A stretch of DNA of 64,000 nucleotides from an uncultured Alphaproteobacteria bacterium (GCA_944393665.1 CALYAX010000001.1:6018-70017), one strand, 5' to 3'; positions 9,944 through 14,451 are shown, counted from the stretch's first letter. The notes: generated by a model not told the origin, from the letters alone. Program-made: numbers and translations.

Positions 9944-11593
9944 TTAAAAGAGTTTCAAAACGGACTGGCTGGCCTGGGAGGCAAGCGAGAGGGAATTAAC
10001 CGCCAGCTGCTGGCGCGTCTGCAAGGCCAGCATGTTGGCACTTTCCTGGTTCATATCCGCCAGGGTTAACTGGTCCGCGCCCTCGGTGAGGACATTAATC
10101 AACGAATTGGTAAAGTTCTCCCGGGTGGTGACAATCTGGTAGTAGTTGCCGAACTCTGAGGCATAGAGCCGCAGCTGGTTAATGGCGCTGTCGATTTGGT
10201 CAAGCGACTCTTGCACCCCGGCGGCGCTGCTCCAGTCGGCGGTTTCCAGCCCCATGCCGGAAGTCGTAGCGTCGACGCCTTTGATATCCAAATCCGAGGT
10301 ACGGGATTCATTAAATACCACTTTCAGGTCCTGACTTTTGAGCAGGTTAACGCCTTTGTACCAAGAGTCATTAATCAGATTATCATACTGGGTCAGGATT
10401 TGGTTAAACTGGCTGGCTGAAGAGGCGCTCTCTTCTTTTGGAACCTGTTCCAGCGGTTTGGTCATTTCAACGACAATATCCGGAAATGCAGGAGCTGCCG
10501 TTGTCTGCAAAACAAACTCCGGCGGCAAAGTATTTTCACCAGGGGCTTCTACAGAATTTATCGCTGCACTGCTGGTGTATAACTTACCGTTAATAGCAAA
10601 ATTTGCTCCTTTTACGGCAGAAATTTTAGTTGCGGCAAATGCTTTATCGTCCTTGACATTAACCAAAGACGTTGTGTCCCGGATGTCAATCTCACTCATA
10701 ACAAAAGAATCGTGAAGGCTTGATGAATTTAATACTGAATTGTAGAGAACCAGAGAAGTATCCGTAAACCCAAAATCATTGGTTAATCCGTTTAATGTTG
10801 CGTTATGGAGCTCAAATTTTCCCGCAGTTGTCCGATCCATGTTGGAAATTCCGCGTAAATTAACAGTTCCTTTAACCGTGACTGTTCCCAATGCCACCAG
10901 AGCTCTTGCCCCGGCAACTTCAGCAGAGGCTGATGTATCAATTGTAATATTTGTATTTTGGATAACACTCTGATTTCCAAGATTAACAGCCCCGCTATAT
11001 CCTATTCTGCGGTCGGATTTGAAAGTTATGTTTAAATCGGATATGAGAGTGTTTTCTCCGGCTGACAGTCCTGAAAGAGCTGTTCCTTGAAAATCAAAAA
11101 CCAATTCTGTCTGCGCAGCGTTTTTATCGAGGTAACGGGCGCCGACCAGGGACTGCCCGTCACCCAGGACAATGTTCTGATTAGCGGACATGGTGATGTC
11201 CGAGGTCAGCACAATTAAACCCTTTTTGCCGCTGTCGATGGCCGCGAGGAGTTCTGCCTCCGTCGATACTTTCGCAACTACCGGCTGCGCCGTTTCCAGC
11301 GCGCTGTTAGCGACCGATTTGGCCTGTTCCAGAAATTTGGTTCCGGCCTCGATACTCTCATTGACGGCTTTTAAGGTTTGTATCCCCTGGCTCATCGCGT
11401 CCAGCAGAACGTTCAAATCCTCGGCGCGGTTGCTCAAAGACTGGGCAGTGTAATAAGAAGACGGATTATCAATCGCGGAATTGACTTTCAACCCGGTGGC
11501 GAGGCGGTTCTGGGTCAGATCCTGCAGCTTAGCCGTCTGCTGCAATGACAGCAGATTGTTCCGCATGGATGATGTCAAGCTGATTCCGCTCAA
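9944..11593 (-). CDS. flagellin-family protein, paralog 1 (549 aa) with a large central beta-helix-like insertion
   Basis: N-terminus (SLTSSMRNNLLSLQQT...GLKVNSAIDNP) and C-terminus (...LAVNSLSLASQASQSVLKLF) match flagellin D0/D1 helices. The start is TTG with an in-frame TAA 7 codons upstream. The central part of about 350 aa is Asn/Ser/Thr/Gly-rich and repeat-like. Confidence 0.8.
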   Translation of the reverse strand: MSGISLTSSMRNNLLSLQQTAKLQDLTQNRLATGLKVNSAIDNPSSYYTAQSLSNRAEDLNVLLDAMSQGIQTLKAVNESIEAGTKFLEQAKSVANSALETAQPVVAKVSTEAELLAAIDSGKKGLIVLTSDITMSANQNIVLGDGQSLVGARYLDKNAAQTELVFDFQGTALSGLSAGENTLISDLNITFKSDRRIGYSGAVNLGNQSVIQNTNITIDTSASAEVAGARALVALGTVTVKGTVNLRGISNMDRTTAGKFELHNATLNGLTNDFGFTDTSLVLYNSVLNSSSLHDSFVMSEIDIRDTTSLVNVKDDKAFAATKISAVKGANFAINGKLYTSSAAINSVEAPGENTLPPEFVLQTTAAPAFPDIVVEMTKPLEQVPKEESASSASQFNQILTQYDNLINDSWYKGVNLLKSQDLKVVFNESRTSDLDIKGVDATTSGMGLETADWSSAAGVQESLDQIDSAINQLRLYASEFGNYYQIVTTRENFTNSLINVLTEGADQLTLADMNQESANMLALQTRQQLAVNSLSLASQASQSVLKLF

Positions 11594-11697: not shown

Positions 11698-14451
11698 TTA
11701 GTGTGCCGCGGCCCAGTTCGTGCCGATACCGACTTCGGCATTGAAAGGAACCTCATAATCAACAACCGTTTCCATTATTTCTTTAATCAACCCGGCAGCA
11801 ATTTCAACCTCGCTTTCCGGCGCTTCAAAAACCAGTTCATCATGAACCTGCAGCAACATCTGGGTTTTCATGCCGCGGATCTTAAACTCATATTCCAGTT
11901 TATTCATCGCCAGTTTAATAATATCGGCAGCACCGCCCTGAATCGGCGCATTAATTGCCACGCGTTCCGCATTCATGGCCAGACGTTTGTTCTTGTCATT
12001 AATTCCTGCCACAGCACATTTCCGGCCAAAGGGTGTCAAAACATACCCGTAACGGCGGGCAAAAGCTATGGTATCTTCCATATACTTTTTAATCTCCGGC
12101 ATTTGGGCAAAATAGGCATCAATATAAGCCTTGGCCTCATCATTGCTAACGCCGATGTTTTTGGCCAGCCCGTATTGTGATATGCCGTAGACTATTCCAA
12201 AATTGATGGCTTTAGCATGGCGGCGCAGGTTGGCGTCTACTTCTTCCGGAGGAACTCCGAAAACGTGCGAAGCGGTGGCGGTATGAATATCCACCCCTGC
12301 CGCAAAAGCCTTTTTGAGATTTTTGACATCAGCAACCGACGCCAGCAGACGCAGCTCTACTTGAGAATAATCTGATGATATCAGTTTATATCCGGGCCTG
12401 GCTATAAAACAGGCGCGGATTTTTTTGCCCTCTTCGCTGCGGATGGGAATATTCTGAAGGTTGGGTTCGGTCGAACTTAATCGTCCGGTATTAGCGACGG
12501 TTTGCAGATAAGTGGTGTGTACCCGGCTGTTTTTATCCAGCAGCGGAAACAAAGCATCGGTGTAAGTTGATTTTAACTTGCTAAACTCGCGCCAATCCAA
12601 AATTTTCTGAGCCAGTTCCACCCCGGTTTCGGCCAGCTGTTCCAAAATATCCGCTCCGGTCTGCCAGGCACCGGTGGGGGTTTTTTTGCCCTTGTGGCCC
12701 TGCTTGTCAAATAAAATTTCACCGATTTGCCTGGGGGAGCCGATGTTAAACTCCTCTCCGGCCAGCTTGTAAATATCCGCCTCTATCGTTTTAAGCTTTT
12801 CATCAAAATAGCGGCTCAGGTCTTGAAGGGCCTGGGCATTGACCATAATCCCCCGGCGTTCCATGGCAAACAGGGTGGCAATTAACGGACGGTCAAAATT
12901 TTCATAAACCCGGGTTTTGGTTTCGGCTGGGAGCCGGGGTTTTAAAATCTGGTAAAGCCGCAAGATAAAGTCCGCCTGCTGGGCCATATATTGCAGAACT
13001 AATGACATATCCAGCTGTTCAAAAGCCAGTTTATTTTTACCTGATCCGAGAAGTTCTTCTAATTTAAGCGGTTTCTGGTCTAAAAAAGCATGGCTTAAGT
13101 CTGCAAGAGAATGGCCATGTTCTGAACTATCCAGATCATAAGAAATGACGGCAACGTCATCGTAGGGGCTTACAAGAGCTTCCGCCCCCCATAAACCGGC
13201 GAGCCAATGCATCGTGTTTTTAAGATTATGACCGATTTTGAGGACGGACGCATCAGCCAAAAGCGGCAAAAGGCTGCGCTTGAGCAGCTCAGAATTTAGC
13301 TGGGCCGGGGCTTTGGCTGCCGCAAACAAATCCATATTTCCTTCCGCGGTTCCGTGAGCTATCGGCAGATAAGCCGCCTCACCCGGCTCAACGGCAAAAG
13401 ACAAACCAACCAGCCTGTCATGAACCGGATCGGGCCCGGTGGCAGCCGCCTGAAGGGCAAACATCCGGCGTTGTTTGATTTTGGCTATCCAGGTCTTGAG
13501 TTTTGCCTCTGTTTCAATGAGTTCGTAGTGGGTTTCCAGAGGTTTAAATACAGTGTTCAATCCCTCATCGCAAGTATGATTTGAACAGCGTTCAACAAAC
13601 CATTTTTCCAAGCGTGATTTAATAGAACGAAAACCGTATTTGTCGATGAAATTTTCAAGTACCGGCATTTGCGGCATATGGCATTTGAAAGATTTGACCG
13701 GCTGAGTAACCGGCACATCGCCTTTCAAAGTTACCAAATCCAGCGAAATCCGGGCATTGTCAATATTCGCCAAAATGGTTTCGCGGCGTTTGTTTTGTTT
13801 GATTTCCCCGGCACGGGACAAAACCCCTTCCAGAGATCCGAATTCTTCAATCAGCTGGGCGGCGGTCTTGAGGCCGATTCCGGGAACGCCGGGGACATTG
13901 TCGATGCCGTCGCCGGCCAAAGCCTGAACATCAACAACCTGATTGGGATAAACGCCGAATTTTTCCCTGACATCTTCCGGCGTAAAAAACTTATCTTTCA
14001 TGGGATCATAAAATTCAACACCCGGGCGGATCAGCTGCATTAAATCTTTATCACCGGAGACAACCACAACCTCAAGCCCTGCTTCCAGCGCTAAATTAGC
14101 ATAAGTTGCGATTAAATCGTCAGCCTCGTAACCTTCCATTTCCAAATGATTGAGGTTAAGCGCCTCGACCGCCTCATGGATAATCGGAAACTGGGGAATC
14201 AGCTCCTCGGGCGTTTCTTTGCGGGTGCCTTTATAATCGGGATAAATATCATTGCGAAAATTTTTGCGCTTGGCATCAAACAGCACCAGGCAGTATTCAC
14301 AGGGAATAGCGCTGGTCAGTTTCATGAACATACTGGTAAAGCCATAAACGGCATTAACCGGGGTGCCGTCCGGCGCCGTGAGCGGAGGAAGCGCATAAAA
14401 AGCCCGGAAAATATAGCCGGAACCATCAATTAAACAGATTTTATCCGCCAT
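11698..14451 (-). CDS. polA: DNA polymerase I
   Basis: 917 aa. N-terminal 5'-3' exonuclease, 3'-5' exonuclease-like region and a C-terminal family-A polymerase domain (...LLQVHDELVFE...). Confidence 0.95.
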   Translation of the reverse strand: MADKICLIDGSGYIFRAFYALPPLTAPDGTPVNAVYGFTSMFMKLTSAIPCEYCLVLFDAKRKNFRNDIYPDYKGTRKETPEELIPQFPIIHEAVEALNLNHLEMEGYEADDLIATYANLALEAGLEVVVVSGDKDLMQLIRPGVEFYDPMKDKFFTPEDVREKFGVYPNQVVDVQALAGDGIDNVPGVPGIGLKTAAQLIEEFGSLEGVLSRAGEIKQNKRRETILANIDNARISLDLVTLKGDVPVTQPVKSFKCHMPQMPVLENFIDKYGFRSIKSRLEKWFVERCSNHTCDEGLNTVFKPLETHYELIETEAKLKTWIAKIKQRRMFALQAAATGPDPVHDRLVGLSFAVEPGEAAYLPIAHGTAEGNMDLFAAAKAPAQLNSELLKRSLLPLLADASVLKIGHNLKNTMHWLAGLWGAEALVSPYDDVAVISYDLDSSEHGHSLADLSHAFLDQKPLKLEELLGSGKNKLAFEQLDMSLVLQYMAQQADFILRLYQILKPRLPAETKTRVYENFDRPLIATLFAMERRGIMVNAQALQDLSRYFDEKLKTIEADIYKLAGEEFNIGSPRQIGEILFDKQGHKGKKTPTGAWQTGADILEQLAETGVELAQKILDWREFSKLKSTYTDALFPLLDKNSRVHTTYLQTVANTGRLSSTEPNLQNIPIRSEEGKKIRACFIARPGYKLISSDYSQVELRLLASVADVKNLKKAFAAGVDIHTATASHVFGVPPEEVDANLRRHAKAINFGIVYGISQYGLAKNIGVSNDEAKAYIDAYFAQMPEIKKYMEDTIAFARRYGYVLTPFGRKCAVAGINDKNKRLAMNAERVAINAPIQGGAADIIKLAMNKLEYEFKIRGMKTQMLLQVHDELVFEAPESEVEIAAGLIKEIMETVVDYEVPFNAEVGIGTNWAAAH

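Follow-up and report, generated by a model that had tools for sequence, protein, structure and literature searches.

In a 64,000-nucleotide stretch of DNA (the window) from an uncultured Alphaproteobacteria bacterium (GCA_944393665.1, CALYAX010000001.1:6018-70017), a gene located between gyrB and polA encodes a flagellin of 549 amino acids (aa) with a predicted right-handed parallel beta-helix as its outer domain. We consider it rather likely that this protein is a genuine flagellin carrying the beta-helix in the loop between helices ND1a and ND1b of domain D1, that it represents one cassette of a dispersed gene family, and that the role of the beta-helix is non-catalytic. The coordinates of all features are listed in Table 1.

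Flagellin core

The two Pfam flagellin models were both matched above their cut-offs, namely Flagellin_N (PF00669) at residues 11-109 (31.0 bits; gathering cut-off, 26.6) and Flagellin_C (PF00700) at residues 464-549 over the full model (positions 1-86; 35.4 bits; cut-off, 23). The top NCBIfam models were those of large alphaproteobacterial flagellins, PRK12688 (211.3 bits against a curated cut-off of 614) and PRK14708 (198 bits against 1384); these scores were far below the cut-offs, and the termini alone were matched. Caulobacter flagellins were the closest solved structures retrieved by phmmer, with 26-28% identity over D0/D1. Alignment to Caulobacter FljK assigned residues 1-101 and 393-549 to the flagellin core, and the complete D0/D1 core (ND0, ND1a, ND1b, beta-hairpin, CD1, and CD0) could be aligned to this solved filament subunit.

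These matches confirmed that the 549-aa protein is a genuine flagellin, as proposed in the original prediction, which had also sized the flagellin ends accurately (approximately 100 and 150 residues). Its label of "giant" was overstated for a protein of 549 aa. Giant flagellins reportedly comprise about 1000 aa or more. A direct reading of the sequence found no HEXXH motif. In a hand alignment of the N-termini, Glu89 of this protein corresponded to Arg90 of FliC, a position that we take to be significant for TLR5 recognition.

Insertion point in D1

The FljK alignments (Table 1), obtained using phmmer against solved structures, left approximately 290 residues inserted between FljK residues 101 and 112. 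In the family profile, the segment following the insertion ("QFNQILtQYD.LINDSWYKGVNLLK…") aligned to residues 114-165 of E. coli FliC, a stretch upstream of the FliC hypervariable region that spans ND1b, the FNGVNVL motif, and the beta-hairpin; the C-terminal part aligned to FliC 408-495. ND1b and the corresponding "YKGVNLL" segment are positioned after the insertion in the 549-aa protein. The order of elements in the AlphaFold2 model was helix 44-101 (ND1a), the beta-helix, helix 390-408 (ND1b), the hairpin at 423-437, and helices 457-519 and 531-548. Only some 20 linker residues separate the hairpin from CD1, where the canonical outer-domain site is.

As the FljK and FliC alignments and the order of elements in the model agree, we place the outer domain in the ND1a-ND1b loop of D1, which it is predicted to replace. 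This is a non-canonical position compared with the hypervariable site after the D1 beta-hairpin. The NCBIfam match was split, with residues 386-548 aligned to model positions 584-750 of 752, which suggests that the large PRK12688-type flagellins share the same insertion topology. We found no description of an outer domain inserted between ND1a and ND1b in the searchable literature. In published flagellin structures, the ND1a-ND1b loop and the canonical exit to D2 share one end of D1, which makes an outward projection of the beta-helix from the filament plausible.

Predicted central beta-helix domain

The full-length AlphaFold2 model, built with 56 homologs, showed a predicted local distance difference test (pLDDT) score above 90 over residues ~105-370, nearly all of which were beta-strand. 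A domain-only model of residues 102-385 (22 sequences) had a mean pLDDT of 94.7 and a predicted template modeling score of 0.93. The predicted fold consists of right-handed parallel beta-solenoid rungs with an N-terminal cap, i.e., a pectate-lyase-like fold, and the length of the outer domain (~285 residues) gives an estimate of roughly 9-10 rungs. An adhesin was the top structural match, and the non-catalytic lyase-like protein Cthe_2159 was also among the top matches, which further included other lyases, the passengers of Vag8 and pertactin, and phage tailspikes; the sequence identity to the matches was 9-16%. The 549-aa protein had no Pfam or NCBIfam match to lyase or hydrolase families, and PF20585 (Pectate_lyase_5, "putative pectate lyase-like adhesive domain") remained sub-threshold (13.2 bits against 24.3; E = 0.1). 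The models thus support a center that is not an ordinary D2/D3 domain.

The beta-helix-like center anticipated in the original prediction was therefore borne out as a confident fold prediction; the non-canonical insertion, the scale of the paralog family, and its mosaic pattern had been missed. The argument offered for it, an Asn/Thr/Ser/Gly-rich composition, did not hold. These four residues make up approximately 33% of the center, a share no higher than that of the termini, and we rejected composition as a basis for the finding. The real signal was the conserved cap (…VSTEAELLAA..SGK.GLIVL..DITMS.NQNIVL.DGQSLVG…) and, after it, periodically recurring N, G, and I/L residues. The sole invariant columns of the central region were in the cap (A107, V109, L115, A118, I127, I133, L143, G146, Q147, L149, and G151). 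Across the 56 homologs, the conserved central positions belonged to the cap or were I, L, N, and G residues that face inward or form turns, and the helix body (residues 188-370) showed neither a conserved polar or charged residue nor a conserved acidic/basic constellation.

Selection was estimated as the approximate ratio of nonsynonymous to synonymous substitution rates (dN/dS) in comparison with the relatives of 83% and 70% identity. The ratios were 0.01-0.03 for the N-terminus, ~0.05 for the C-terminus, 0.08-0.10 for the cap, and 0.08-0.26 for the helix body. Sequence divergence accordingly points to strong purifying selection on the D0/D1 termini, and the values for the cap and the helix body argue that the beta-helix domain is maintained as a functional fold under constraint, as opposed to a spacer in decay.

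Dispersed paralog family

A second flagellin gene in the window encodes a protein of 619 aa (paralog 2), which also matched Pfam Flagellin_N and Flagellin_C. Its identity to the 549-aa flagellin was 47% overall (BLASTP), with almost identical termini. Paralog 2 stands alone, with tsf/rpsB on one flank and a NUDIX gene plus a 188-aa open reading frame (ORF) on the opposite one. Between the two genes, the DNA encoding residues 1-75 and 464-549 was 89-96% identical, with approximately 85% of the same-residue codons being identical, and the identity of the centers was at chance level. For residues 412-436, the protein was 92% conserved but the DNA only 76%, which points to selection rather than recent conversion.

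An upstream block of approximately 100 nt, ending in CCGGGCGrGGACAAAATT-TTG and, like the termini, ~90-96% identical between paralogs, was common to four paralogs of the same species (two in the window and two in locus L077), and other metagenome-assembled genomes (MAGs) each had their own shared upstream block. The sigma-70 scan found no sigma-70-type site on the coding strand upstream of the flagellin gene. By-eye fitting of sigma-54 (GG-N10-GC) and sigma-28 (TAAA-N15-GCCGATAA) promoters to the conserved block failed.

All the paralogs examined were solo genes among housekeeping genes. Three from the same or closely related species (P0021, P0026, and P0051) had housekeeping genes and nothing else around them, and the two nearest relatives of the present cassette, at 83% and 70% identity, were found in entirely different neighborhoods (valS/eno/aspS and tkt/fba/rpe). 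The MAG E01__bin302 contained at least 21 complete flagellin genes, in addition to fragments at the ends of contigs (~12 of them N-terminal and ~14 C-terminal), which places the family among the largest flagellin gene expansions known to us; the well-assembled MAG E07__bin220 contained at least seven complete genes. This pattern fits a duplication of gene-plus-promoter units, with the ends homogenized by recombination and the centers diversified or swapped. Paralogs with near-identical ends and different middles suggest a way to vary or functionalize the flagellum surface.

Many family members (P0066 and others, with 28-50% query coverage, and L077 20129-21776) had only the termini in common with the 549-aa flagellin. 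The central domains of these proteins (610-750 aa) show no sequence relationship, and one carries PF07603; the same flagellin scaffold therefore hosts several outer-domain types in the lineage. Short palindromic repeats (for example, ACTCGGGTCAAGCCCGAGTATGACA; often in tandem) were located ~40-130 nt upstream of many flagellin starts in E01__bin302 (loci L001, L005, L006, L008, L012, L046, L052, L053, and others). They resemble repetitive extragenic palindromic or miniature inverted-repeat transposable elements and may have a part in how the paralogs spread or are regulated. Paralog 2 is flanked by ORFs of 188 aa (22609-23175, plus strand) and 182 aa (25175-25723, plus strand), which are kept in two independent contigs (L075 and L076). 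As candidates for FliS, FlaF, or FlbT-like proteins, these ORFs were without evidence, with no Pfam match at E ≤ 0.01.

Distribution of the beta-helix module

A profile of the domain alone retrieved 226 clusters among 1.84 billion representatives. Flagellin termini were present in 129 of the 150 top clusters. The other 21 were non-flagellins, most of which start with Sec-type signal peptides, and the ten that were scanned with Pfam had no flagellin match. Five non-flagellins (P0249, P0272, P0275, P0324, and P0340; about 600-940 aa) had a Sec signal peptide and a Cys-rich region, after which came the same beta-helix with its cap; none of them matched a Pfam family above its cut-off. P0249 carries two copies of the module and reached 22.6 bits for Pectate_lyase_5 (cut-off, 24.3). 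A motif similar to "A(K/R)AYWLPDY" was observed in four of the five non-flagellin carriers that were fully read. One non-flagellin carrier (L085 8001-9866) was located in an alphaproteobacterial-looking genome, as judged from LpxC, BamD, and TrcR. As the module is shared between flagellins and Sec-secreted Cys-rich proteins, it is common to two display scaffolds in the lineage, which fits a role in surface interaction.

Flagellar apparatus in the lineage

No flagellar apparatus or chemotaxis genes were found in the window. The original prediction had stated that no other flagellar genes were present there, which was correct for these two groups; the window does contain the flagellin paralog 2. 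Apparatus genes in related MAGs were searched within 10 kb of flagellin paralogs by tblastn using E. coli proteins. Genes beside flagellin paralogs included flhA (45% identity, 1.6e-113), fliG, and fliN in L022; flhB, fliQ, and fliR in L036; fliP (51% identity) in L008; and flgE in L021. The FlhA of L022 (related MAG E19__bin150) shared 92% identity with its counterpart in a gut species that is abundant, being represented on at least 1000 contigs of up to 2.04 Mb, and is labelled "Azospirillum sp. 47_25 / Alphaproteobacteria bacterium"; this species saturated the matches of the FlhA search, among which the window's own species did not appear. The lineage has an intact FlhA of high conservation, and the apparatus is presumably present in the genome of the window's own species. 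A literature search on the flagella of RF32/CAG-239 returned nothing on the flagellins of the lineage.

Proposed function and alternative explanations

We propose that the protein would probably leave the cell through the flagellar type III system and polymerize via its conserved D0/D1 helices. The beta-helix, as it is spliced into the ND1a-ND1b loop, would then decorate the filament surface. The gene would belong to a dispersed multigene family in uncultured gut-type Alphaproteobacteria, in which every copy would be a solo gene with its own beta-helix body, the same promoter and 5'-untranslated region (5'-UTR) block, and near-identical, recombining termini. As for the purpose that we infer for the diversity of the centers, the beta-helix may be a rigid variable surface module serving ligand or glycan adhesion, the diversification of the filament as an antigen or phage receptor, or both. 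A more elaborate version, which we put forward only tentatively, is a cassette system in which dozens of dispersed flagellins with recombinogenic 5'-UTR/N-terminal and C-terminal ends and different beta-helix modules would achieve a variable display of adhesins or antigens via recombination and differential expression. In this version, the modules, inserted at the non-canonical D1 site, would also be employed by the secreted Cys-rich proteins, and the system would be a flagellar analogue of the antigenic variation of pilins or surface proteins.

Several points weigh against the proposed filament flagellin with a non-catalytic beta-helix. The paralog counts of the MAGs may be inflated by strain mixtures, and dS was near saturation in the comparisons used for dN/dS. 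No apparatus gene was found in the window or in four other stretches of the same species (~150 kb of the species). In E07__bin220, a short flagellin (~260 aa) lacking an outer domain (L048 10001-10780) occurs beside the large beta-helix flagellins; a flagellin of this type could be the main filament subunit, with the large paralogs being minor or non-polymerizing. Finally, the beta-helix fold is common to many polysaccharide lyases and hydrolases, and an individual cassette could be catalytic.

The last point leads to an enzymatic flagellin, i.e., an active polysaccharide lyase or hydrolase (degrading pectate, alginate, or mucin glycans) displayed in thousands of copies on the filament, comparable to flagellinolysin. 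We regard this as unlikely. The identity to enzymes is only 9-16%, the sole match of this kind is the sub-threshold adhesive domain, and the leading structural matches were an adhesin and, among others, the non-catalytic Cthe_2159. The absence of a conserved acidic/basic constellation in the helix body of the 56 family members, together with the absence of HEXXH, argues against a family-wide enzyme, and the lack of a catalytic constellation favors a structural, adhesive, or variable domain. The absent conserved polar residues and the adhesin as the top match thus lean away from an enzyme, and the role of the beta-helix is most likely non-catalytic. The original prediction had listed filament protein, secreted adhesin-like protein, and enzyme as options; of these, the enzyme is disfavored. 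A slightly smaller chance is given to a protein that is exported and not polymerized, acting as a soluble adhesin or effector by means of the flagellar export signal and chaperone sites, or as a regulatory flagellin similar to Caulobacter FljJ, with the filament built from the short flagellin. The L048 protein, the unusual insertion point, and the position of the paralogs as solo genes far from apparatus genes agree with such a protein; however, the whole D0/D1 core is conserved at a dN/dS of 0.01-0.05, which is beyond the need of an export signal, and the split architecture matches the NCBIfam models of large alphaproteobacterial flagellins.

A relic or repurposed surface protein with a flagellin fold in a lineage that has lost motility, as the original prediction had considered for a non-motile host-associated lineage, would account for the missing apparatus genes in the window and the other stretches of the species. 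It is highly improbable in view of the export-gate, hook, and C-ring genes (FlhA, FlhB, FliP, FliQ, FliR, FlgE, FliG, and FliN) encoded near paralogs in related MAGs, the intact and conserved FlhA, and the strong purifying selection, including that on D0/D1, and intact ORFs of many paralogs. Hardly credible is a hook-filament junction protein of the FlgL or FlgK type. Weak NCBIfam matches to FlgL models (E of 0.006-0.03) were obtained, and FlgL has the flagellin N-terminal fold. However, the best flagellin model performed far better than the best FlgL model (E of 2.7e-62 vs 6e-3), Flagellin_C was above its cut-off, and dozens of paralogs per genome misfit a junction protein.

Comparison with known systems

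Several of these features have counterparts elsewhere. A 2024 AlphaFold-based survey of flagellin outer domains (Nat Commun 2024, PMC11532411) described a minor cluster (#35) with a pectate-trisaccharide-lyase-like fold. As in the present family, its members are flagellins with a pectate-lyase-like beta-helix outer domain, which is predicted only and has no assigned function. The survey analyzes this cluster no further and makes no mention of the insertion point, the paralog expansion, or the gut alphaproteobacterial lineage. A cluster with a pectate-lyase-like outer domain is already known, and cluster #35 possibly includes the family described here, which is distinguished by the insertion site, the cassette-like mosaic, and the family size. 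Flagellinolysins and other HEXXH flagellins (Eckhard et al. 2017, as cited in PMC11532411) likewise display a functional non-immunoglobulin domain on the filament, but according to the survey, this is a metalloprotease domain with HEXXH, whereas the present protein has a beta-helix fold. Enzymatic flagellins are a conceptual precedent only.

The PRK12688/PRK14708 flagellins match the present protein in the N-terminal ~100 residues and a contiguous C-terminal segment of ~165 residues including ND1b; they are longer (750-890 aa), and their central domains are unrelated in sequence. The Caulobacter crescentus flagellins FljJ/K/L/M/N/O (6xl0, 8uxj, 8uxn, and 9cef) are also alphaproteobacterial, with several paralogs per genome, but they have ~273 aa, no outer domain, and six paralogs rather than dozens. 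Caulobacter and Bdellovibrio possess six flagellins each, and compared with the present family, the paralogs of these multi-flagellin systems are far fewer and more uniform. The binding region of the Lactobacillus reuteri serine-rich-repeat protein (5nxk), PfbA, pertactin, Vag8, and EtpA resemble the beta-helix in fold without shown homology (identity of 16% or less); in contrast to the present domain, they are cell-wall-anchored or autotransporter passengers and not flagellin inserts.

Outer domains are the part of the flagellum met by hosts, phages, and surfaces, and most of their fold types have no known function. In the present family, a beta-helix outer domain that is predicted with confidence and has adhesin-like relatives is located at a point of D1 other than the textbook hypervariable region. 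If the filaments display variable beta-helices, this would bear on the adhesion of commensals to mucus and glycans and on the evasion of antibodies and flagellum-attaching phages. The family would also show how the ND1a-ND1b loop naturally tolerates inserts that are large and rigid, which may be useful for the engineering of flagellin display.

Locus and gene calling

Table 1. Features of the flagellin locus and of paralog 2, with positions counted from the first nucleotide of the window
Feature	Position	Strand	Evidence
Flagellin gene, 549 aa and stop codon, TTG start	9944..11593	-	ORF listing, Pfam Flagellin_N and Flagellin_C, orthologs
Residues 1-101, ND0 and ND1a helices	11291..11593	-	Model helices 8-35 and 44-101; residues 21-101 align to FljK 21-101
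Residues 102-385, predicted outer domain, right-handed parallel beta-helix in the ND1a-ND1b loop	10439..11290	-	
Residues 102-155, conserved N-terminal cap and first beta-helix rung (…VSTEAELLAAIDSGKKGLIVLTSDITMS.NQNIVLGDGQSLVG…)	11129..11290	-	Invariant columns
Residues 393-549, ND1b helix, D1 beta-hairpin, CD1, and CD0	9947..10417	-	Contiguous alignment to FljK 112-270
Upstream block (promoter and 5'-UTR), …TGTGGAA-N16-CTTTATTTAAAAGTTCAAAAAGnTTATTAC…CCGGGCGrGGACAAAATT-TTG	11594..11697	-	Aligned same-species paralogs
GC-rich hairpin in the gap separating gyrB from the convergent flagellin gene, possibly a bidirectional terminator serving both	9832..9852	.	Terminator-like call, plus strand, after gyrB
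Flagellin paralog 2 of 619 aa, differing in the beta-helix body but not in architecture or cap motif	23279..25138	+	phmmer, E = 1.7e-125
Upstream block of paralog 2, homologous to 11594-11697	23176..23278	+	Upstream alignment

The 549-aa ORF is a real gene and not a chance ORF, as proteins 100% or 99% identical to it are present in independent assemblies (including locus L074) and dN/dS was 0.01-0.26 in every region. One ortholog with 99% identity, P0003, is from the assembly GCA_964316525.1. Public gene calls for the close orthologs P0002-P0005 begin at Met10 and give a protein of 540 aa. A TTG codon nine codons upstream of Met10 (window 11567-11593) is kept in the relatives and restores the canonical flagellin N-terminus; this start and the resulting N-terminus MSGISLTSS are conserved in the relatives and match the family consensus. 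The end originally given for the gene, 11700, lies beyond its start and takes in 104 nt of intergenic DNA as well as the stop codon of polA.

The gene is flanked by gyrB (7383..9827, plus strand), to which it is convergent, and by polA (11698..14451, minus strand) upstream. This placement was described correctly in the original prediction, but it carries no special meaning, since the paralogs occur singly at scattered sites with housekeeping genes around them. The window is an origin-proximal housekeeping region (parAB, rsmG, mnmEG, rho, dnaX, recR, gyrB, parE, and polA). The hairpin after gyrB may also serve the flagellin transcript, a use that we only infer because the minus strand is without a T-run.

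Two genes for the B subunits of type II topoisomerases are 18 kb apart in the window. One is gyrB, whose 814-aa product contains the GyrB insert, the other is a parE-like gene (27925-29916, plus strand; 663 aa), and a flagellin paralog is located within a few kb of each. As flagellin paralogs are so widely scattered, we regard this proximity as a coincidence. A signal recognition particle (SRP) RNA gene (Rfam RF00169, 67 bits; 38203-38298, minus strand) lies within the 5' end of the listed dnaX ORF (36460-38331, minus strand; TTG start, 623 aa). The Pfam matches of this ORF start only at approximately residue 70, and the true dnaX start is thus probably downstream of the SRP RNA. Upstream of rpsB, an rpsB leader element was detected (27636-27726, minus strand). 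Two tRNA-Ala genes, with the anticodons CGC (31176-31251) and GGC (31681-31756), are located on the plus strand in an ORF-poor stretch of 1.5 kb.

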